A stretch of DNA of 35,120 bases, from IMG/VR virus record IMGVR_UViG_2778261168_000003; one strand, 5' to 3'. This stretch comes from a virus (lineage: Duplodnaviria > Heunggongvirae > Uroviricota > Caudoviricetes). The first letter of the stretch is position 1. Each line of letters begins with the position of its first letter. The notes beneath the pieces are model-generated. The model did not search any database and was not told the DNA's origin. It saw only the letters and a program-made list of their open reading frames with translations. Of this stretch, positions 1 through 34,186 are shown piece by piece. The translations under genes were made by a program, and so were the position numbers.

Positions 1-1017
1 TCACACTTCTAGCGTTGCGAGGGGGTTGAATCTCAGAGCCGTCTCAAGATGATCGGGTGCTAAATGGGCATAGCGCATAGTCATTTTTATATCGTGATGT
101 CCGAGGATTTTTTGCAAAGCAAGGATATTTCCACCCGACATCATGAAGTGCGCCGCAAACGTATGGCGCAGAACGTGTGTCAGTTGACCGCGAGGGAGCA
201 CGATAGACGTTTTTTCCATCACGGATAAAAATTGAAAATAGCAGTCTGTAAAGAAATTGAACCCATCAAGCGCCATGATCTCTTCGTAAAGCTCTTTACT
301 GATAGGGATGCTTCTGTTTTTCTTCCCCTTCGTTCTTACAAAGGTAATTCGGTATTTGGTCACTTGCGAGCGGGTAAGATTTATTGCTTCTCGCCAGCGT
401 GCGCCTGTGCTTAGGCATATCTTGACTACCAGTGCCAGAATTGGGTCCTGACGTTTGCAATCAGCCAGCAGTTCAACAATCTGCTCATGGGTAAGCCATG
501 CCATCTCTTTTTCTGCGATGGTGAATTTTCGCATGTTCTCCAGTGGGTTCGGATACGACCATTCGCCCAGGCGGGATAGTTCGCTAAAAACACTACTTAG
601 ATAGCTTTGCTCCAGGTTAATGGTGACCGGGCTTGCTCCTTTCTTCCATTTCTCGCTGAAGTAGATCTCACCTGTCAGGCGTTTATCTCGATAGTGGGCA
701 AACATTTTAGAGGTTAGATCAGTTGCAAGGGGATTGCCCAGAGCGTCAACCATCAACAGCAGTTTGTCATAGACATGCTGCCCAGCTGTCAGAGATTTAC
801 CATGTAGTTTGAACCATAGCTCAATCACGTCTTTCAATGTCCGACGATCCACTGATTCGCCCAGCCAGGGCTTTGCTTCGGTTTCTTCCATCGTGTGACG
901 CTCAAAAGCCAGAGCTTCGCCTTTGGTGGCGAATTGTTTACGCACACGACGTCCACTACGTCCGGCGGGGTAACATTCGCAAAGCCATTTTCCTGTGGTG
1001 AGTTTTCGTACTGCCAT
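1..1017 (-). CDS. int: Tyrosine integrase (P2 Int-like)
   Basis: Minus-strand ORF; C-terminal region carries tyrosine-recombinase motifs (ARWRE, HVLRHTFA, LGHHDIKMTMRYAHL). Start chosen at the Met of MAVRKLTTGKW (338 aa), not the upstream in-frame extension to 1095. Stop codon at positions 1-3. Confidence 0.85.
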   Translation of the reverse strand: MAVRKLTTGKWLCECYPAGRSGRRVRKQFATKGEALAFERHTMEETEAKPWLGESVDRRTLKDVIELWFKLHGKSLTAGQHVYDKLLLMVDALGNPLATDLTSKMFAHYRDKRLTGEIYFSEKWKKGASPVTINLEQSYLSSVFSELSRLGEWSYPNPLENMRKFTIAEKEMAWLTHEQIVELLADCKRQDPILALVVKICLSTGARWREAINLTRSQVTKYRITFVRTKGKKNRSIPISKELYEEIMALDGFNFFTDCYFQFLSVMEKTSIVLPRGQLTHVLRHTFAAHFMMSGGNILALQKILGHHDIKMTMRYAHLAPDHLETALRFNPLATLEV

Positions 1018-1203
1018 AAAAAATGCCCTCCAGTAGAGAGCATTTTTACTGTATGTATAACCAGTGTCAATGTATGAAATCCTGCGACCATACATCTCAC
1101 TGAAGCCATAATGAAGTTAGCTATTTTTTGCTATGTGAGTATGTGACTTTTGCGGTTAGCCTGCGGCTCATTGTTATATTAGGCGCAGATATAAAAGCAA
1201 AAT

Positions 1204-1395
1204 TTATCGCGAGTTTTTAGTACAGATTTTTTTTGATTTACTAATAGTTCCATCATTGCAAACGAACTTTCCATCGGAGGTACAGTGAGAGACACCTCCC
1301 TTTTTCCCAGAACAAGGATAATTTTTAGCATAGGTAGTTAGTGGGTTTAATAACAAAGAGCATGATAAAACCACAAAAAATACCTTACCAAGCAT
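1204..1395 (-). CDS. Small secreted Cys-containing protein (moron candidate), unknown function
   Basis: 63-aa ORF with hydrophobic N-terminal signal-like segment ([23 protein letters not shown]) and several Cys in the mature part; lies in a very AT-rich stretch between int and cI. Confidence 0.35.
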
Positions 1396-1410: not shown

Positions 1411-1986
1411 TTACCTAACGTACTTAATTGTTAAACTTATAATTTTCCCAATTATTTCAACATCTTCTATCTTGCACTCGAAGGCTCTGTTTCCACCCTC
1501 GACGAAGATTCTTCCACCGGGTAAACGAGTAATGTCACGGATCGTTATTTCGCCATCAATACTTATTACCCATTTACCATCACGTATATCATCAAATTCC
1601 TTATCACAAATAAATTCAGAATTATTATCTGTGATTACAAAAAGATTCTTGAATGCCGACGGTAGAAATTCTCTATCGAAAATATAAAAACCGTCTTCAC
1701 ACAAGGCCCCATCAGATAATACATATTTAGCAACTTCCATAGTATTTGTATTACCTGAAGTTTGCTTTGAACCATGCCCGGTTGTGAGCCAATTAAGCGA
1801 GGTGCCTGTTTCAAGGGCGCACTGGATTACCCATTCTGCTGGGAATGAGTCACGCATGTAGCGTGTGGCGAGTGTACTTTTAGAGATTCCTAAATGATCG
1901 CACAACGCCTGTCGAGTCTTGAATCCATAAGCTTCTACCATGCGCTCTATAGCGCCTCGTCCGCCTTTCTCCAAATTCATGGTCAC
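1411..1986 (-). CDS. cI: Immunity repressor, 186 CI-like
   Basis: 191-aa minus-strand ORF upstream of and co-oriented with int; N-terminal HTH-like segment (LCDHLGISKSTLATRY); divergent from the apl/cII early operon as in phage 186. Confidence 0.75.
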   Translation of the reverse strand: MTMNLEKGGRGAIERMVEAYGFKTRQALCDHLGISKSTLATRYMRDSFPAEWVIQCALETGTSLNWLTTGHGSKQTSGNTNTMEVAKYVLSDGALCEDGFYIFDREFLPSAFKNLFVITDNNSEFICDKEFDDIRDGKWVISIDGEITIRDITRLPGGRIFVEGGNRAFECKIEDVEIIGKIISLTIKYVR

Positions 1987-3910: not shown

Positions 3911-4764
3911 GCACCATCCTGAAATGGGCGGGTAATAAAACCGCCATTATGTCCGAACTGAAAAAATACCTTCCTGCTGGCCCGCGACTGGTTGAACCTT
4001 TCGCGGGTTCTTGTGCTGTGATGATGGCGACGGATTACCCCAGCTATCTGGTTGCGGATATTAATCCTGATTTAATCAACCTCTATAAAAAGGTTGCTGC
4101 TGATTGCGAGGCGTTTATATCTCGTGCCAGAGCTTTATTTGAGGAAGCAAACAGGGAGGTGGCTTATTACAACATAAGGCAGGAGTTTAATTACTCCTCT
4201 GAAATTACTGATTTCATGAAAGCGGTATATTTCCTGTATCTCAATCGTCATGGTTACCGTGGGTTATGTCGCTATAACAAGAGCGGGCATTTCAACATTC
4301 CCTATGGGAATTATAAAAATCCGTATTTCCCTGAAAAAGAAATTCGCAAATTTGCAGAAAAAGCCCAGCGAGCAACGTTTATCTGCGCCAGCTTTGATGA
4401 AACGCTGGCGATGTTGAAGGCGGGGGATGTGGTGTATTGCGATCCGCCTTATTACGGTACGTTTTCCGGTTATCACACTGACGGCTTCACTGAAGATGAC
4501 CAGTATCACCTGGCATCCGTTCTTGAACATCGGTCATCAGAAGGACATCCGGTCATTGTTTCTAACAGTGACACATCCCTGATCCGTTCGCTGTATCGCA
4601 ATTTTACTCACCACTACATCAAGGCAAAACGCAGCATCGGCGTAGCAGCTGGTGAGAGTAAATCTGCAACAGAAATCATCGCTGTTTCTGGGGCGCGCTG
4701 CTGGGTGGGATTTGATCCTTCGCGTGGCGTGGATAGTTCTGCCGTGTACGGAGTGCGTGCATGA
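3907..4764 (+). CDS. dam: DNA adenine methyltransferase (Dam-like)
   Basis: N-terminal AdoMet motif (ILKWAGNK...EPFAGSCAV) and catalytic DPPY motif (CDPPYYGTF); GGAGG RBS 7 nt upstream of ATG 3907. Confidence 0.85.
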
Positions 4765-7175
4765 GCCATGCTGATATGAACAACTGCAGCGGCTTTAACG
4801 AGGCCGCCGCAGCATTCTCATGGAACAGCCCGAAAAAGGCTATTAACCCTTATCTGGACCCGGCGGAAGTTGCGCCGGTTTATGCGCTTTCAAACCTGAT
4901 CACTCTGTACGCTGCCGATAACGAGCAGGAACAACTGCGCCGCGAGGCACTGAGTGATCAGGTCTGGGAGCGTTATTTCTTTAATGAATCCCGTGATCCT
5001 GTCCAGCGCGAAATGGAGCAGGATAAGCTCATTAGCCGGGCAAAGCTGGCGCATGAGCAGCAGCGTTTTAATCCAGACATGGTCATTCTGGCGGACGTCA
5101 ACGCTCAGCCTTCCCATATCAGCAAGCCGCTGATGCAACGTATTGAATACTTCAGCAGCCTGGGCAGGCCAAAGGCTTATTCCCGCTATTTGCGTGAGAC
5201 GATTAAGCCATGTCTGGAACGACTGGAGCATGTACGCGAGAGTCAGCTATCCACTTCTTTTCGCTTTATGGCAAGCCATGAAGGGCTGGACGGCCTGCTG
5301 ATCCTGCCTGAAATGAGTCAGGCTCAGGTGAAACGCCTGTCCACCCTTGTTGCTGCGCATATGAGCATGTGTCTTGATGCAGCTTGTGGCGATTTGTATG
5401 CCACCGATGACGTTAAGCCAGAAGAAATCCGCAAAACATGGGAAAAGGTGGCAGCGGAAACCCTGCGTCTGGATGTTATTCCGCCTGCGTTTGAGCAACT
5501 CCGTCGGAAAAGAAACCGCCGTAAACCCGTGCCCTATGAACTCATTCCGGGTTCGCTGGCGCGTATGTTGTGTGCCGACTGGTGGTATCGGAAATTATGG
5601 AAGATGCGTTGCGAATGGCGGGAAGAGCAGTTGCGTGCTGTCTGCCTGGTCAGCAAAAAAGCATCCCCCTATGTCAGCTATGAAGCCGTGATGCATAAAC
5701 GTGAGCAGCGCCGTAAGTCGCTGGAGTTTTTTCGTTCTCATGAACTGGTGAACGAAGACGGCGACACGCTGGATATGGAAGATGTGGTAAACGCCAGCAG
5801 CAGCAACCCTGCGCATCGCCGCAATGAGATGATGGCCTGTGTTAAAGGTCTGGAGCTTATCGCGGAAATGCGCGGTGACTGCGCCGTTTTCTACACCATC
5901 ACCTGTCCGTCACGTTTCCATTCCACGCTAAATAACGGCAGGCCCAACCCAACCTGGACAAATGCGACGGTAAGACAAAGCAGTGATTATCTGGTCGGCA
6001 TGTTTGCTGCATTTCGTAAGGCGATGCACAAAGCCGGATTGCGGTGGTATGGCGTGCGGGTGGCTGAGCCGCATCATGACGGTACAGTTCACTGGCACCT
6101 GTTGTGTTTTATGCGCAAAAAAGACCGCCGCGCCATCACTGCATTACTGCGTAAGTTTGCCATCCGTGAAGACCGCGAGGAGTTGGGCAATAACACAGGG
6201 CCGCGCTTTAAGTCTGAGTTGATTAACCCGCGCAAAGGAACGCCGACAAGCTACATCGCGAAATACATTAGTAAGAACATTGACGGGCGTGGTCTGGCTG
6301 GCGAGATCAGCAAGGAAACGGGTAAATCCCTGCGTGATAACGCTGAATACGTTAATGCCTGGGCGTCTCTGCATCGTGTTCAGCAATTCCGCTTCTTTGG
6401 CATTCCGGGGCGTCAGGCTTACCGTGAACTGCGATTACTGGCTGGTCAGGCGGCAAGGCAACAGGGGGACAAAAAAGCAGGTGCGCCGGTACTGGATAAC
6501 CCGCGCCTTGATGCAATCCTGGCTGCTGCTGATGCTGGTTGTTTTGCCACCTACATCATGAAGCAGGGCGGCGTACTGGTTCCCCGCAAATATCACCTGA
6601 TCAGAACCGCTTATGAAATCAACGAAGAGCCGACCGCCTATGGCGATCACGGCATTCGTATTTATGGCATCTGGTCACCCATTGCAGAGGGCAAGATCTG
6701 CACTCATGCAGTGAAGTGGAAAATAGTTCGTAAGGCCGTTGACGTTCAGGAGGCGGCAGCCGACCAGGGCGCTTGCGCCCCTTGGACTCGTGGCAATAAC
6801 TGTCCCCTTGCTGAAAATTTGAACCAACAAGGGAAAGACAAATCAGCTGATGGGGATACCAGAACGGACATTACCCACATGGATGACAAGGAGTTGCACG
6901 ATTACCTACACAGTATGAACAAAAAAGAGCGCCGGGAACTGGCTGCAAGGTTACGCTTGGGGAAACCGAAACGGCGTAGAGACTACAAACAGCGAATTAC
7001 AGACCATCAACGACAGCAGCTCGTCTATGAACTGAAGTCCAGAGGATTTGATGGCAGCGAGAAAGAGGTCGATTTACTCCTTCGCGGCGGCAGTATTCCG
7101 TCAGGAGCAGGCCTGCGTGTCTTCTATCGGAACCAGCGTTTGCAGGAAGATGATAAGTGGCGGAACCTGTATTAA
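4761..7175 (+). CDS. A: Rolling-circle replication initiator gpA (P2 A-like)
   Basis: 804-aa ORF; HxH-type motif ([10 protein letters not shown]) and tyrosine motif (YIAKYISK) as in P2 gpA; ATGA overlap with dam. Confidence 0.9.
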
Positions 7176-7267
7176 TTACGCGGGTTAACAATTCGTGCTC
7201 TTAATAATACCAGGCATATCAGGCTGATGAACGTAAAAAAACGTTTTACATCAGTAAGATTATTATA

Positions 7268-7287
7268 TACTGTAAATATAAACAGTG
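7268..7287 (+). promoter_or_regulatory. LexA (SOS) box
   Basis: TACTGTAAATATAAACAGTG: perfect CTGT-N8-ACAG with AT-rich spacer, about 40 nt upstream of the Tum-like ORF. Confidence 0.6.
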
Positions 7288-7328
7288 GTTATCTATACAG
7301 TGTTGTTTGCGGTGTCATAGGAGGAAAG

Positions 7329-7517
7329 ATGCAGGACTATTTTTTGGAGTCTTTGAAGCTCCAGCGCATTGATTTTTTTCTTAAGCTTGTAGCGGCTAGT
7401 GAGTGTAGTGATGAAGAGAAGGGGCTGGCCCTGCAGTGGGTTTCTGAATTGACTGATGAACTCATGGCAAAAATCAGAAGCCACGAATACAACCGCTCAA
7501 TGGATGTCATCAGCTGA
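7329..7517 (+). CDS. SOS-controlled small protein, candidate Tum-like antirepressor
   Basis: 62-aa ORF with AGGAGGA RBS immediately downstream of the LexA box; position (after A, before cos) matches 186 tum. Assignment is by context, not sequence recognition. Confidence 0.4.
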   Translation: MQDYFLESLKLQRIDFFLKLVAASECSDEEKGLALQWVSELTDELMAKIRSHEYNRSMDVIS

Positions 7518-7527
7518 GGTGACTTTT

Positions 7528-7761
7528 ATGCGCATTGAAATAATGATCGATAAAGAGCAGAAGATTAGCCAGTCTACCCTGGACGCCCTTGAATCCGAGC
7601 TTTACCGCAATCTGCGCCCCCTGTATCCCAAAACGGTAATCCGTATCCGTAAAGGTAGCTCTAACGGTGTGGAACTGACCGGACTGCAACTGGACGAAGA
7701 AAGAAAACAAGTGATGAAAATTATGCAGAAGGTGTGGGAAGACGACAGCTGGCTGCATTGA
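7528..7761 (+). CDS. DinI-like protein
   Basis: 77-aa ORF; MRIEIMIDK...LESELYRNL...RKIMQKVWEDDSWL resembles E. coli DinI (MRIEVTIAK...ETWESADDWF); RBS GAGGTGA. Confidence 0.7.
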   Translation: MRIEIMIDKEQKISQSTLDALESELYRNLRPLYPKTVIRIRKGSSNGVELTGLQLDEERKQVMKIMQKVWEDDSWLH

Positions 7762-7874
7762 TTTTGTCAATAGACGCTTGTTTTTACTAATCAAAAAGGG
7801 TTACATATGAGTGAGAGGCGATGTCAATCAGATATCGCCTTGTTTTTTGTCAAGAAAAGAATAATAGGCTAAAA

Positions 7875-8552
7875 ATGAAAATTAATAATGTAGCGTTACC
7901 AATATCTCTTGCTGTAATCCTAACTGGTTGCGTGCCACATGCTTCTAACCGAAATATCACTGCTATTGAAGTGGTGAAGCCTGCTATTGGGCAAAGTGCT
8001 ACCGCCTACATGGGCGATCCCATTATCACATCTGCTACTGGATTTAAAACGGACGTACTAGAACTTGGTGCGGCTAATGGTGCATTGTCTTCTATCGCTG
8101 CTGGTACATATTGCAGTGAGGGGAATGGAATTTACCGCAATTATCATAACCCTCAAGCTGTTGCGTTAAAAAATCTCTATGGGCAAATCGGTAACTATGT
8201 TGATTATGTTAGTTACGATGCTGCAAAAAATGAGATATCACCGCCAAATGGTACTTCTTATACTGCATCAGAAATTTCTATCAAACGTGTTCCTGATGGG
8301 CTGTGTCGAGTTAGTAACTCATTGGTTAAGACTATCGAATACAATGGAAATGCAGGCGGTGTAATGAAGTTCACCTATCGTGAATTTGCAAACGATATGG
8401 CTCGTGCAGCATTTACAACAGATTTTTCTGTAGATTCTAAGGGAAGTGACGTTATCGCTTACAAAGGTGCCAAGTTCAAAGTGAACAAGGCTGATAACTC
8501 GTCTATTTCTTATACAATTATTTCTGGCTTTGACAAGGCTGTCACGTTCTAG
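7875..8552 (+). CDS. Lipoprotein of unknown function (cargo gene)
   Basis: Signal peptide with lipobox (ISLAVILTGC); 225 aa; AT-rich codon usage unlike the phage core. Confidence 0.6.
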   Translation: MKINNVALPISLAVILTGCVPHASNRNITAIEVVKPAIGQSATAYMGDPIITSATGFKTDVLELGAANGALSSIAAGTYCSEGNGIYRNYHNPQAVALKNLYGQIGNYVDYVSYDAAKNEISPPNGTSYTASEISIKRVPDGLCRVSNSLVKTIEYNGNAGGVMKFTYREFANDMARAAFTTDFSVDSKGSDVIAYKGAKFKVNKADNSSISYTIISGFDKAVTF

Positions 8553-18521: not shown

Positions 18522-18966
18522 ACTGCAGAAGGTGGACGACTGGCTGAGTGTCTTGCTGACGAATCTGGAGCCAGCCGCAAGAAGCCGCATGATGCGTCAG
18601 CTGGCGCAGGAACTGCGCCGGACACAGCAGCAGAATATCAGGATGCAGCACAACCCTGACGGTAGCAGCTATGAACCGAGACGGGTAACAGCACGCAGCA
18701 AAAAGGGTCGCATCAAACGTCAGATGTTTACAAAGCTGCGCACCACCAAATACCTGAAAACTGCCGCCAGCGCCGATTCTGCCAGCGTGCAGTTTGAAGG
18801 TAAGGTGCAGCGCATTGCCCGCGTTCACCATTACGGCCTGCGTGATCGTGTAAGCCGTAATGGTCCGGAAGTGCGGTATGCAGAGCGGCGATTATTAGGT
18901 TTCAATAACGATATAATGTTGAAGTTAATTGATCTGTTAACTCGGCATTTAATTAATCCAAACTAA
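18514..18966 (+). CDS. S: Tail completion protein S-like
   Basis: 150 aa; synteny with P2 S; the last ~20 codons are AT-rich and overlap the convergent cargo gene. Confidence 0.7.
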   Translation: MAELQKVDDWLSVLLTNLEPAARSRMMRQLAQELRRTQQQNIRMQHNPDGSSYEPRRVTARSKKGRIKRQMFTKLRTTKYLKTAASADSASVQFEGKVQRIARVHHYGLRDRVSRNGPEVRYAERRLLGFNNDIMLKLIDLLTRHLINPN

Positions 18967-20158
18967 GTTTATATTTCTCAATGTGATTATTGATGTGATT
19001 AAAGAACATTCTTGGATTCCAACCTTTTGTGAGTTCAGAAATTAAATACTCATCAACCATGTCGAGTGCATAGTCTAAGGTCGGCTGTAAAAGTAGCCCC
19101 CCAATTGATCCAACTACTGGAGCTAAAGGAGATGTAATATTCGATGCCGCTAAGGCTCCAGTTAACATCATGGCAATGCTCTTAGTCGAACGGCCTAAAA
19201 AGGAATCAAAAAATCCTTTTGAGTTTGATATGCTATCAATGTAATATTTTGAGATGTCACTCGCTGAACTGCTTTGTTCTGCTTCTTTTAACCATTTTCT
19301 GAATTTTTTAGCATGACGATCATTTCTGAGCCTCATGATGTCATTCATTGGTAATCCCATTTCAATAAATGATTTACGTAAGTCAGGGAAGTTTTCAATG
19401 AGTGAAATTTGTTTGAATATCTCATTCTTATCAATTGTAATTAATGCTTGGCTGATAATTGCACTCACATTGTCTGTTATGTGGGGGCGAGCTTTTTTAT
19501 TAACGAGATATTTAAAGTTGAACAGTTCTTCTGCAACTTTTCCTAACTTTTTTTTATCGGTAAGACTCAAATCTGTTAATTTCTCTTTAGTTAAATCGAT
19601 TCCCAACTGGTTAAGTTTACCACTATTCAAAGCTGATATTGTCATGTCAACACAGTCTTTTTCTAAACCTTTGGGAATGTCTAAGTAGTTATCTCTCAGT
19701 TTTTTAATAAGATTTCTTTTTTCACCAGGTTTAAGACCTTTTCTTAATACGCTGAGCCCAGTTGAGATCGACTCCTCAGGGTCCGTATGTACGGTACTAT
19801 TAAATCTCATGCTAACTAATGGAAGAGTTCCAGGTATCGGAGATGAAATGTATCCAACATTGGCAGTCCATAATGAAAAACTAAGAGCCTCTTGGTCAAT
19901 TAATCTCTCAACATCATATAGGCCTATCTCATTAACCAGAAAAGCAAGTGGAACGTTTTCTCCATATACTTTGAAGTTTAATTTTTCATTTAAAATAAAA
20001 CCCTCAAATAGCTTTGATCTAATATTTTGAAGTTTTTTAGGTTGATCTATTATGTCTTGCTTCGTGAGCTGTGTTTCGCCAATCATAATATATTTTCGGC
20101 AGTAATCGTTTAGTTCTGTATCAAATAAAGCATTCGATATATCTATTTTTTTTGACAT
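18953..20158 (-). CDS. Cargo protein of unknown function at the S/V (P2 orf30-type) locus
   Basis: 401-aa ORF antisense to the late operon in a strongly AT-rich insert; hydrophobic stretch near the C-terminus (IAMMLTGALAASNITSPLAPVVGSIGGLLL); no recognisable catalytic motif. Confidence 0.6.
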   Translation of the reverse strand: MSKKIDISNALFDTELNDYCRKYIMIGETQLTKQDIIDQPKKLQNIRSKLFEGFILNEKLNFKVYGENVPLAFLVNEIGLYDVERLIDQEALSFSLWTANVGYISSPIPGTLPLVSMRFNSTVHTDPEESISTGLSVLRKGLKPGEKRNLIKKLRDNYLDIPKGLEKDCVDMTISALNSGKLNQLGIDLTKEKLTDLSLTDKKKLGKVAEELFNFKYLVNKKARPHITDNVSAIISQALITIDKNEIFKQISLIENFPDLRKSFIEMGLPMNDIMRLRNDRHAKKFRKWLKEAEQSSSASDISKYYIDSISNSKGFFDSFLGRSTKSIAMMLTGALAASNITSPLAPVVGSIGGLLLQPTLDYALDMVDEYLISELTKGWNPRMFFNHINNHIEKYKLSLD

Positions 20159-20333
20159 CTTATGATCCTGTTATCCTTGTGAGGACACCCTAGAGTAATA
20201 GTGAATTTATAAATACACAGCGGCATAAATTAGATCTTTTAAGATTTTTTTTCAATCTATAAATATATATAAGTGAAAAGTGATTTTTTGACTGTGAGGG
20301 CGGCAAAAGGTGTGGGACGACTTTAAAAGTCAT

Positions 20334-20351
20334 TGTGCTATTGATTACACA
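20334..20351. promoter_or_regulatory. Late-activator (Ogr) dyad TGT-N12-ACA upstream of V
   Basis: TGTGCTATTGATTACACA; shares TGTGC-ATT with the dyad upstream of FI. Confidence 0.4.
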
Positions 20352-20397
20352 AGCTTGCGACCTATCCAGGTGACTCCTGGAAAGACATTCTATAGGC

Positions 20398-20976
20398 ATG
20401 AACGCACAACTAACAGAAATCATGCGCCTTATCACCAACCTAATCCGCACTGGTGTAGTCACCGACGTGGACCGGGAGAACTGGCTTTGTCGGGTGAAAA
20501 CGGGCGAGCTTGAAACTAACTGGATCAGCTGGCTGACGCTGCGTGCAGGGAATGCCAGGACATGGTGGCGACCATCGGAAGGTGAGCAGGTGGTGGTGCT
20601 GAGCATGGGCGGCAATCTGGAAACCGCGTTTGCGCTGCCCGCCATCTATTCGAATCAGTTCGCGCCACCGTCGACGTCGGCGGACGCCTGCGTGACAGAA
20701 CATCCTGACGGTGGCTGGTTTGAATACGAACCCGCCACCGGGCGCTGGTATGTCAGAGGCATCAAATCAATGGTCATTGAGGCCGCTGACAACATCACCA
20801 TGAAAACCAGTGAGTTTGTACTGGAGGCTGACCGCACGCGCATTAACAGCGAAGTGGTGATCAATGGTGGCATTACCCAGGGCGGCGGAGCGATGAGTTC
20901 TAACGGGATCGTGGTTGATGCGCATCAGCATACTGGCGTCCTGAAAGGCGGCGATACCACCGGAGGCCCGGTATGA
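20398..20976 (+). CDS. V: Baseplate spike/assembly protein V
   Basis: 192 aa; N-terminal LIRTGVVTDVD...CRVKTGE...WLTLRAGNARTWW resembles P2 gpV as recalled. Confidence 0.8.
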   Translation: MNAQLTEIMRLITNLIRTGVVTDVDRENWLCRVKTGELETNWISWLTLRAGNARTWWRPSEGEQVVVLSMGGNLETAFALPAIYSNQFAPPSTSADACVTEHPDGGWFEYEPATGRWYVRGIKSMVIEAADNITMKTSEFVLEADRTRINSEVVINGGITQGGGAMSSNGIVVDAHQHTGVLKGGDTTGGPV

Positions 20977-32265: not shown

Positions 32266-32351
32266 CGCTGCCGCCATTTTGCCGCCATCGTTAAAAAACA
32301 GTGCTTCTAACATCATGATTTTAAACAGCATAAATTTAAGGCAACAAAAAA

Positions 32352-32388
32352 CCCATCAACCTTGAACCGAAATGGCGGGGTTGATGGG
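32352..32388 (-). terminator. Hairpin with T-run on the minus strand, possible ybjL terminator
   Basis: CCCATCAACC...GGTTGATGGG stem with an A-run on the plus-strand 5' side (T-run for the minus strand). Confidence 0.35.
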
Positions 32389-32500
32389 CTCCACAAAATG
32401 GGGACATCAAAGAAAAGCAGTGGCACTAATTAAGACTGATGCCCTGCGGAAAAGTTCTGCGGTTGTGCAAAAAAATTTCATTTTCAGGGCAACTTCAGTT

Positions 32501-34186
32501 TTATCCTAATCCTGGCCATACCATGACGATGATTGTCCCTGCCAGCGTCAGCAGGACGTTGGCGATTGCGTAGGTGCCCGCATAGCCCAGCGCAGGGATG
32601 TTACTGCGAGCTGTATCACTGATGATCTCCATTGCCGGCGCGCAGGTGCGTGCGCCCATCATTGCGCCGAACAACAGTGCGCGGTTCATTCGCAATACAT
32701 AAGCACCGAACAAGAAACAGATAACCACGGGCACAAGACTGACAATTAATCCGGCAATCAACATCTGACCGCCAATCGCGCCCAGGCCGTTATTAATACC
32801 GCTACCGGCGCTCAGACCAACGCCTGCCATAAACACCATCAAGCCGAACTCTTTCACCATGCTTAATGCACCTTGCGGAATGTAACCGAAGGTCGGGTGG
32901 TTAGCACGCATAAAGCCCAGCATAATTCCGGCGAATAACAACCCGGCAGCGTTCCCCATGCCGAAACTGAATGTGCTGAACTGGAAGGTGATCATCCCGA
33001 TCATCAGCCCAATAACAAAGAAGGCGCAAAATGCCAGCAGGTCAGTGACCTGGCTGTGAATCGAGATAAAGCCGATGCGATCGGCGATGGTTTTTACGCG
33101 ACGGGCATCACCGCTGACTTGTAAAACGTCACCTTTGTTAAGCACGACGTTGTCATCTATCGGCATCTCAATCTGGCTACGAATGACGCGGTTAAGGAAG
33201 CAACCGTGATCGGTCAACTTCAGTTGTGCGAGACGTTTACCTACAGCGTTATGGTTTTTAACGACCACTTCTTCAGTGACGATACGCATGTCGAGAAGGT
33301 CACGATCGAAAACTTCTTTACCGTTACGGAAGCTGGGATCGAGTCGGGCATGGGCGTCGGGATAGCCTACCAACGCTATTTCATCGCCCATTTGTAGCAC
33401 GGCATCACCGTCTGGATTTGCCAGAATCCCGTTACGTCGAATACGTTCAATGTAGCAGCCGGTTTGTCGATAAATACCCAGTTCACGCAGATTTTTGCCG
33501 TCGGTCCAGGCCACCAGCTCCGGGCCGACGCGATAGGCGCGGATCACCGGTAAATAAACCTTACGGTTGGCATCAGTGTCCAGGCCACGTTCGCGGGCGA
33601 TTTGCTGGGCGCTGGTCTGTAAGTCCTGATGCTGCAATTTCGGCAAGTAACGCGCACCAACAATCAAACTCACCAGACCGATTAAATAGGTTAAGGCATA
33701 CCCGAGGCTCAGATTATCCAGTGCCAGTGAGAGCTGCCTGCTTTCCATGCCGGAATGACGCAGTGTATCGCCAGCACCGACCAGAACCGGTGTCGACGTC
33801 ATAGAGCCTGCTAACATACCGGCCGTCAGGCCAATATCCCAGCCAAACAGCTTACCTAACCCTAAGGCGATCACCAGCGCACTGCCAACCATCACCAGTG
33901 CTAACATTAGGTAATTTTTCCCATCGCGAAAAAAAATGGAAAAAAAGTTCGGTCCGGCTTCGACCCCGACGCAGAAAATAAACAGCATAAAGCCAAGATT
34001 AAGCGCATCGGTGTTAATGCTGAAATGTTGTTGGCCTAATAACAGCGATACGACTAAAACGCCAATGGAATTACCCAGTTGGATCGAACCAAGTCGTAAC
34101 TTTCCGAGACATAGCCCAAGCGCGAGGACCACAAATAATAACAGAATGTAATTCCCATTTAACAATTCGGCGACGTTTATATTCAC
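32501..34186 (-). CDS. ybjL: Putative transport protein YbjL (host gene)
   Basis: 561-aa multi-pass membrane protein with two central soluble domains; recognised as E. coli YbjL; neighbours ybjM and grxA as in E. coli K-12. Confidence 0.85.

Follow-up and report, generated by a model that had tools for sequence, protein, structure and literature searches.

Organization of the SOS unit

The window, by which we mean the whole stretch of DNA analysed here (35,120 nucleotides, IMG/VR record IMGVR_UViG_2778261168_000003), is a prophage of the P2/186 family, in which an integrase, a CI repressor, an ORF at the Apl position, CII and a gpA-like replication gene follow in that order. Directly downstream of the gpA-like gene lies a compact unit made up of an SOS operator, two small genes and a terminator. 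The features on which the following analysis is based are:

1-1095 (-), integrase, from the gene order of the window
1411-1986 (-), 186-type CI immunity repressor (Pfam Phage_CI_repr and Phage_CI_C)
4761-7175 (+), P2 gpA-like replication gene (gene A), directly upstream of the SOS unit
7245-7273 (+), putative sigma-70 promoter of the SOS unit, from its position and by analogy with p95 of phage 186
7268-7287 (strand not applicable), SOS box 1 (LexA operator), TACTGTAAATATAAACAGTG, overlapping the -10 element
7283-7302 (strand not applicable), candidate SOS box 2, CAGTGGTTATCTATACAGTG, its 16-nt core overlapping that of box 1 by a single base
7329-7517 (+), ORF1, predicted antirepressor gene of the tum/tumA type, 62 aa, with an AGGAGG Shine-Dalgarno sequence at 7319-7324
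7528-7761 (+), ORF2, DinI-like gene of the tumB type, 77 aa, with a GAGGTGA Shine-Dalgarno sequence at 7516-7522
7815-7850 (+), intrinsic terminator with an 11-bp stem and a T run (hairpin 7815-7841), from a terminator scan
7875-8552 (+), predicted lipoprotein gene, 225 aa, lipobox LTGC, phrog_1353

The ribosome-binding site of ORF2 overlaps the stop codon of ORF1. To evaluate the coding character of each gene, we compared substitutions at the first, second and third codon positions with those in diverged relatives. The counts are 8/3/21 for ORF1 against SopEPhi and 14/8/44 for ORF2 against PSP3, a third-position bias in both cases, and by this measure both genes are under purifying selection. 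Downstream, the hairpin at 7815-7841 folds with -17.5 kcal/mol (z = -3.8), and none of 200 shuffled sequences was equally stable; this terminator closes the two-gene unit and is the positional counterpart of t95a in phage 186.

Several competing features of the same region were considered and rejected. Antisense ORFs at 7293-7484 and 7510-7794 contain stop codons in Fels-2 or SopEPhi, and the substitutions fit the plus-strand frames. An extended 96-aa form of ORF1 beginning at 7227 would start upstream of both the promoter and the operator and matches no Pfam family; RefSeq also disfavours it, annotating the 62-aa ORF in E. coli HS. The terminator scan additionally reported a hairpin at 7506-7523, spanning the ORF1 stop codon and the ORF2 Shine-Dalgarno sequence, which we do not regard as a regulatory element: it is no more stable than shuffled sequence (z = -1.3) and is missing from PSP3 and SopEPhi. 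A search of Rfam found no RNA family between positions 7000 and 8000.

Promoter and LexA operator

Box 1 matches the LexA consensus (the gammaproteobacterial SOS box) at 17 of 20 positions and has a perfect CTGT-N8-ACAG core. It is the sole match to the consensus with three or fewer mismatches in the 35 kb window, and none of 100 shuffled sequences contained any such match; it is also the only occurrence of CTGT-N8-ACAG in the window, where 0.32 would be expected by chance. The box sits 92 nt after the stop codon of gene A and 61 nt upstream of the ORF1 ATG, and it is identical in the DuoHS prophage of E. coli HS. We compared this arrangement across ten divergent Peduoviridae loci (the window, Fels-2, SopEPhi, PSP3, 186, ESSI2_ev015, ESSI-2, ENT90, YenM_324 and YenM_201.16). 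All ten have a perfect-core LexA box at 38-65 nt before the Tum-type start codon, while the sequence flanking the box cannot be aligned between lineages. The near-consensus LexA box that the initial annotation had placed before the two small genes is thus both unique in the window and conserved.

The putative promoter consists of a -35 element TTTACA (7245-7250), a 17-nt spacer and a -10 element TACTGT (7268-7273). Its layout is the same as that of 186 p95 (TTCACA, 18 nt, TACTGT), in which the LexA box likewise supplies the -10 element through its first six bases. A generic promoter scan made no strong sigma-70 call at the SOS unit, because TACTGT fits the -10 consensus at only 3 of 6 positions; the promoter would be placed here by analogy with p95. 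The location of the unit directly downstream of the gpA-like gene, as in p95-tum, agrees with the earlier proposal of a LexA-repressed promoter at a position equivalent to that in 186.

Relationship of ORF1 to phage 186 Tum

An alignment of ORF1 with 186 Tum, proposed in the initial annotation as a check, succeeded at the level of profiles. Pairwise BLASTP gave no alignment of ORF1 with either 186 Tum or PSP3 TumA, so profile methods were needed to establish the link. In the PHROG collection ORF1 matches phrog_698 (E = 5.9e-38), a family labelled 'unknown function', and residues 1-70 of 186 Tum match the same family (E = 5.9e-6, positions 6-44 against 6-44); phrog_8554 and phrog_1993 are also matched by both. 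Direct comparison by hhalign of a profile of four ORF1-type sequences with one of four 186-type N-domains gave a probability of 96.9% and E = 1.4e-10, with collinear residues (1-45 against 1-45). The two families share the motif (L/I/V)-E/Q-R-(I/V)...(R/K)-(L/M)...C...(E/D)-(K/R)-x-(I/L/V)-A-L-x-W/L-(I/L/V)-(A/S)-E. Judged from these profile comparisons, ORF1 is a homologue of the N-terminal half of 186 Tum.

The AlphaFold2 model of ORF1, computed from the single sequence (pLDDT 91.5), is a helical hairpin formed by residues 2-23 and 28-61, with the conserved cysteine in the turn. Foldseek searches with this model returned generic helical hairpins alone, every one with E > 1, and the ORF1 family had no hit in a PDB sequence search. 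Neither Pfam, NCBIfam nor PADLOC has a match to ORF1.

These results bear on how the family is annotated. The RefSeq label of ORF1 is 'hypothetical protein', and phrog_698 has no Pfam or NCBIfam model, while full-length Tum proteins are mislabelled in databases as 'RecA filament binding protein DinI' and in RefSeq as 'DinI family protein'. The profile link, taken together with the published DuoHS deletion described below, would justify naming the ORF1 family Tum-type antirepressors, and the practical value of the present analysis lies in this annotation upgrade.

ORF2, a DinI-like gene

The identification of the second gene as DinI-like, also made in the initial annotation, is borne out. ORF2 matches Pfam DinI (PF06183) over the full profile (positions 1-63 of 63) with E = 6.6e-23 and 81.3 bits, against a cutoff of 24.2, and matches the structure of E. 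coli DinI (1GHH) over residues 1-75 with E = 2.7e-6. Its product retains the C-terminal Q-x-x-W-E...W motif and is 78% identical to PSP3 TumB and 41% identical to residues 71-145 of 186 Tum. In the 186 record, the internal GTG that starts a separate 'truncated Tum' is exactly where this segment begins. ORF2 scores 42.7 bits against the NCBIfam equivalog model for host DinI, whose cutoff is 111 bits, so it is a phage paralogue of DinI, distinct from the host protein.

ORF2 is most likely a separable DinI-type accessory that would modulate RecA filament activity and hence the SOS signal. The exact role of DinI is called elusive in the literature, and deletions of the dinI homologues of Gifsy prophages had no measurable effect on induction.

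Occurrence of the module and previous experiments

The closest characterized relative is DuoHS, the prophage of E. coli HS. The ORF1 and ORF2 products are 100% identical to ECHS_RS04495 and ECHS_RS04500, respectively, and gene order, box 1 and both Shine-Dalgarno sequences are the same. DuoHS differs from the window by a few substitutions in the box 2 spacer and the leader, and it carries different cargo beyond the lipoprotein gene. In the 2025 Phollow paper, the gene called 'tum' is ECHS_RS04495 of DuoHS, the exact counterpart of ORF1 (PMC12055606). The primers used for the delta-tum mutant, NHR24 and NHR28, join the ATG of ECHS_RS04495 to its TGA and leave TGAGGTGACTTTTATGCGCATTG intact, that is, ORF2 with its ribosome-binding site (PMC12055606). 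After mitomycin C, neither DuoHS delta-tum nor a lexA(Ind-) strain showed lysis or viral foci (PMC12055606). The need of ORF1 and of cleavable LexA for induction has thus been shown in DuoHS, with identical proteins, and ORF2 is insufficient for induction in the ORF1 deletion. The initial annotation had suggested a split or alternative arrangement of the antirepressor function. The split of the gene stands, the two ORFs corresponding to the N- and C-terminal halves of Tum, but the antirepressor function itself is unsplit, as the deletion of ORF1 alone in DuoHS demonstrates.

In Fels-2 of Salmonella LT2, 97.5% DNA identity extends over positions 7180-7860 (681 bases), and the same two ORFs are present as STM2728 and STM2726.1 (STM2727), the latter a member of the DinI family whose annotation points to similarity with 'TumB [PsP3]'. 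Fels-2 differs from the window by two amino-acid changes in ORF1 and by a box 2 that is nearer to the colicin sequence. The mutagen MX raises expression of Fels-2 STM2727 5.5- to 14.8-fold, and STM2726-STM2727-STM2728 were flagged as one operon (PMC2225428). We infer from its number that STM2727 is the DinI-like gene of Fels-2. Induction of the unit by DNA damage has thus been shown in Fels-2. The same 681-base unit is about 98% identical to that of many P2-like phages of Klebsiella.

More distant relatives preserve the layout with much less sequence similarity. In PSP3, gene A is followed by the same two-gene arrangement, which a LexA box precedes by 40 nt, and the PSP3 record describes tumA as 'similar to 5' end 186 tum; UV induction of prophage' and tumB as 'similar to dinI and 3' end of 186 tum'. 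TumA of PSP3 is far diverged from ORF1: hhalign gives E = 0.012 and a probability of 3.5% against the ORF1 family, compared with E = 4e-6 against the 186-type family. The split of tum in two in Fels-2 and PSP3 is stated by Lemire 2011, citing Bunny 2002 (PMC3121763), and the upstream gene of PSP3 is named there as the carrier of antirepressor activity (PMC3121763).

Phage 186 shares with the window, in p95-tum-t95a-orf97, the position of the unit, a LexA box over the -10 element, an N-terminal antirepressor, a C-terminal DinI part and a terminator after tum. It differs in that both domains are fused in one 146-aa Tum, to which internal starts add a DinI-only product; the 186 record treats this truncated Tum as a modulator and not as a CI inhibitor. 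Tum inhibits CI after LexA derepression of p95 (PMC7708051), and it does so by binding and inactivating CI according to Shearwin 1998, as that work is cited in PMC7708051 and PMC3121763. A comparable logic is found in the Gifsy and Fels-1 antirepressors GfoA, GftA and FsoA, where, as in the window, a LexA-repressed operon encodes a small antirepressor and a DinI homologue (PMC3121763). In those operons dinI comes first, the reverse of the order here, and the prophages and their repressors are lambdoid.

Four phages carry a LexA-boxed gene of the Tum-N type with no adjacent DinI gene:

ESSI2_ev015 (L005), 1201-1413
ESSI-2 (L006), 1201-1425
ENT90 (L007), 1201-1398
YenM_324 (L008), 1189-1400

In the ESSI-2 and YenM_324 records this gene is unannotated. 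Their existence indicates that the antirepressor domain can stand alone and that DinI is an add-on. Of 5426 complete E. coli genomes, 1125 contain the split module and 5 a near-full-length fused tum of the 186 type, the latter counted at megablast sensitivity; the textbook fused Tum is the rare form among them. The two-gene module is thus already known, and it has been put to experiment in DuoHS, whose two proteins are identical to these. Its importance is that it decides whether DNA-damaging antibiotics wake a very common prophage family (about one-fifth of complete E. coli genomes), one that is also present in Klebsiella and Salmonella. The module matters for phage-mediated gene transfer, and this biology is established.

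Proposed mechanism of induction

The presumed target of ORF1 is the CI repressor at 1411-1986, which matches Pfam Phage_CI_repr (2.8e-33) and Phage_CI_C (8.6e-27) and is 98% identical to DuoHS CI and 32% identical to 186 CI. Its match to the S24 peptidase family, which would provide self-cleavage, is below the Pfam cutoff. A CI with no S24 domain above threshold fits induction driven by an antirepressor, not by cleavage. With ORF1 and Tum beyond the reach of BLASTP and CI only 32% identical to its 186 counterpart, the surface of contact may differ from that in 186.

We conclude, with a probability of about 0.93, that the unit is the SOS induction operon of a Fels-2/DuoHS-type prophage of the P2/186 family, with ORF1 as the antirepressor of CI and ORF2 as an accessory. 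In a healthy lysogen, LexA would occupy the operator, formed by box 1 over the -10 element and the overlapping box 2, and keep the promoter shut. Upon DNA damage, RecA-stimulated self-cleavage of LexA would release the promoter, from which a short RNA would be transcribed as far as the 7815-7841 terminator. ORF1, as a 62-aa helical hairpin, would then bind the 186-type CI, so that the lytic promoter is no longer held; with CI inactivated, lytic transcription would begin and the prophage would enter lytic growth. ORF2 would meanwhile modulate the activity of the RecA filament and hence the SOS signal. Direct binding of CI by ORF1 is proposed here by homology with 186 Tum.

Other explanations of the same locus were weighed against this one. 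In phage 186 a single 146-aa protein holds both parts, which might suggest that the two ORFs descend from a fused tum that was broken by a stop codon and are now a non-functional pseudogene. We regard this as extremely improbable: the codon-position pattern points to purifying selection on both ORFs, ORF2 has its own Shine-Dalgarno sequence and an ATG at the residue of the internal GTG of 186, and the split form far outnumbers the near-full-length fused one in E. coli (1125 of 5426 complete genomes against 5). Moreover, a Tum-N-type gene occurs with no DinI neighbour in ESSI-2, ESSI2_ev015, ENT90 and YenM_324, and the identical module works in DuoHS. It is also very unlikely that ORF2 is the real inducer, acting via RecA, and that ORF1 is a bystander. 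ORF2 is the only one of the two to belong to a named family, and whole Tum proteins carry the database label 'RecA filament binding protein DinI', but an in-frame deletion of ORF1 alone ends the induction of DuoHS with ORF2 in place. The 186 record likewise has the DinI-only truncated Tum as a modulator and not as a CI inhibitor, CI offers RecA no self-cleavage domain (S24 being below cutoff), and the LexA box is retained in phages that have only the Tum-N-type gene.

A third explanation takes the LexA box as a fortuitous match and has the genes read from the upstream early lytic transcript, with no SOS control. In its favour, both genes share the strand of gene A and lie beyond it, and no strong sigma-70 site was called here by the generic promoter scan. 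We give this explanation almost no credence: a 17/20 match appeared in none of 100 shuffles, a box at the same distance is present in 10 of 10 diverged loci despite their diverging flanks, and the operator is near-identical to colicin SOS operators known from experiment. In addition, the Fels-2 unit is induced by damage, and induction of DuoHS is blocked by lexA(Ind-). The reading that we prefer is thus that of an SOS induction operon in which ORF1 would be the antirepressor.

Candidate double operator

Inspection of the operator of this SOS induction operon reveals a second, overlapping box. The window displays the double-operator pattern ...CAGTGGTTAT-N4-ACAGT..., in which the second core overlaps the first by one base, and a double overlapping operator (boxes 1 and 2) is present in the window, E. 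coli HS, Fels-2 and SopEPhi, while 186 and PSP3 each have a single SOS box. More than 1000 Col-type plasmids carry a sequence 86-91% identical to the stretch of about 42 nt across both boxes; in them it adjoins, on the upstream side, cea (ColE1) and a Klebsiella bacteriocin gene. In an alignment with the upstream regions of ColE1 cea and of the Klebsiella bacteriocin gene, the columns CAGTGGTTAT and TACAGT are invariant; among the phage copies (window, HS, Fels-2 and SopEPhi), GGTTAT and ACAGT are invariant and the central spacer is variable.

Colicin operators such as that of ColE1 cea have, like the window, two overlapping SOS boxes. Operators of this double type are reported to be bound by two LexA dimers and to prevent untimely expression of a lethal function (PMC2994835). 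They differ from the window in what they control: colicin operators drive colicin genes, whereas the operator in the window drives an unrelated antirepressor, and the likeness ends at the edges of the operator. By analogy with the colicin case, box 2 would also be occupied by LexA. Near-identity of spacer bases that make no contact would indicate exchange of a regulatory cassette rather than convergence. By sequence, the tum operator of the Fels-2/DuoHS lineage is a colicin-type double SOS box, unlike those of 186, PSP3 and the other lineages examined. We propose tentatively, at slightly less than even odds, that it also works as in colicin operons and that it reflects cassette exchange between Col plasmids and P2-like phages and not convergence.

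If two LexA dimers bind in the colicin manner, tum would rank with those SOS genes that are held most tightly and fire last, and if this is true, the decision to lyse would be kept for severe or sustained damage. A literature search found no paper that ties tum to a colicin-type operator; the primary Fels-2 paper lay outside the scope of this search and may already note it. The colicin-type double operator is a small detail, and possibly an unreported one.

Neighbouring genes

The gene that directly follows the terminator of the SOS unit, at 7875-8552, encodes a predicted lipoprotein with the signal MKINNVALPISLAVILTGC, for which phrog_1353 is the sole family match. It occupies the position of 186 orf97 and bears no relationship to Orf97. 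A longer ORF of 243 codons, at 7821-8552, has the exact length of 186 orf97, yet shows no homology to it and was rejected; the likely start at 7875 gives the lipoprotein signal. Its Fels-2 homologue, STM2726, is listed with STM2727-STM2728 as one damage-responsive operon (PMC2225428), and the 186 terminator t95a is annotated as a partial terminator. By analogy, the lipoprotein gene may possibly be a third gene of the SOS unit, reached by read-through.

Four other regions of the window deserve mention. A variable cargo locus lies between the SOS unit and the portal gene, and there two overlapping genes at 8897-10548 (+) match the PADLOC candidate defence system PDC-M03. The gene A component of this pair (304 aa, E = 2e-122) has a weak HipA_C-like kinase signal, and the gene B component (246 aa, E = 3e-93) has a Pfam HIRAN domain (1e-13); DuoHS has a different gene at this place. 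Two minus-strand ORFs, of 401 aa (18953-20158) and 151 aa (20190-20645), are located inside the plus-strand tail and baseplate block. Neither has a Pfam or PADLOC match, and together they may form a second cargo (moron) locus. A 63-aa ORF at 1204-1395 (-), located between the integrase and cI, combines several cysteines with a signal-like, hydrophobic N-terminus; Pfam gave no match to it, and E. coli HS has a hypothetical protein of equal size in the same place. Host DNA flanks the prophage on the right and contains the RybB sRNA at 32343-32421 (-) (Rfam, 105 bits) and a ybjL-like permease with Asp-Al_Ex and TrkA_C domains at 32501-34186 (-). DuoHS has the same right-hand neighbourhood in E. 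coli HS (ogr and then ybjL, with rybB), and the rybB/ybjL flank suggests that the host is E. coli-like and that the attachment site is shared with DuoHS.
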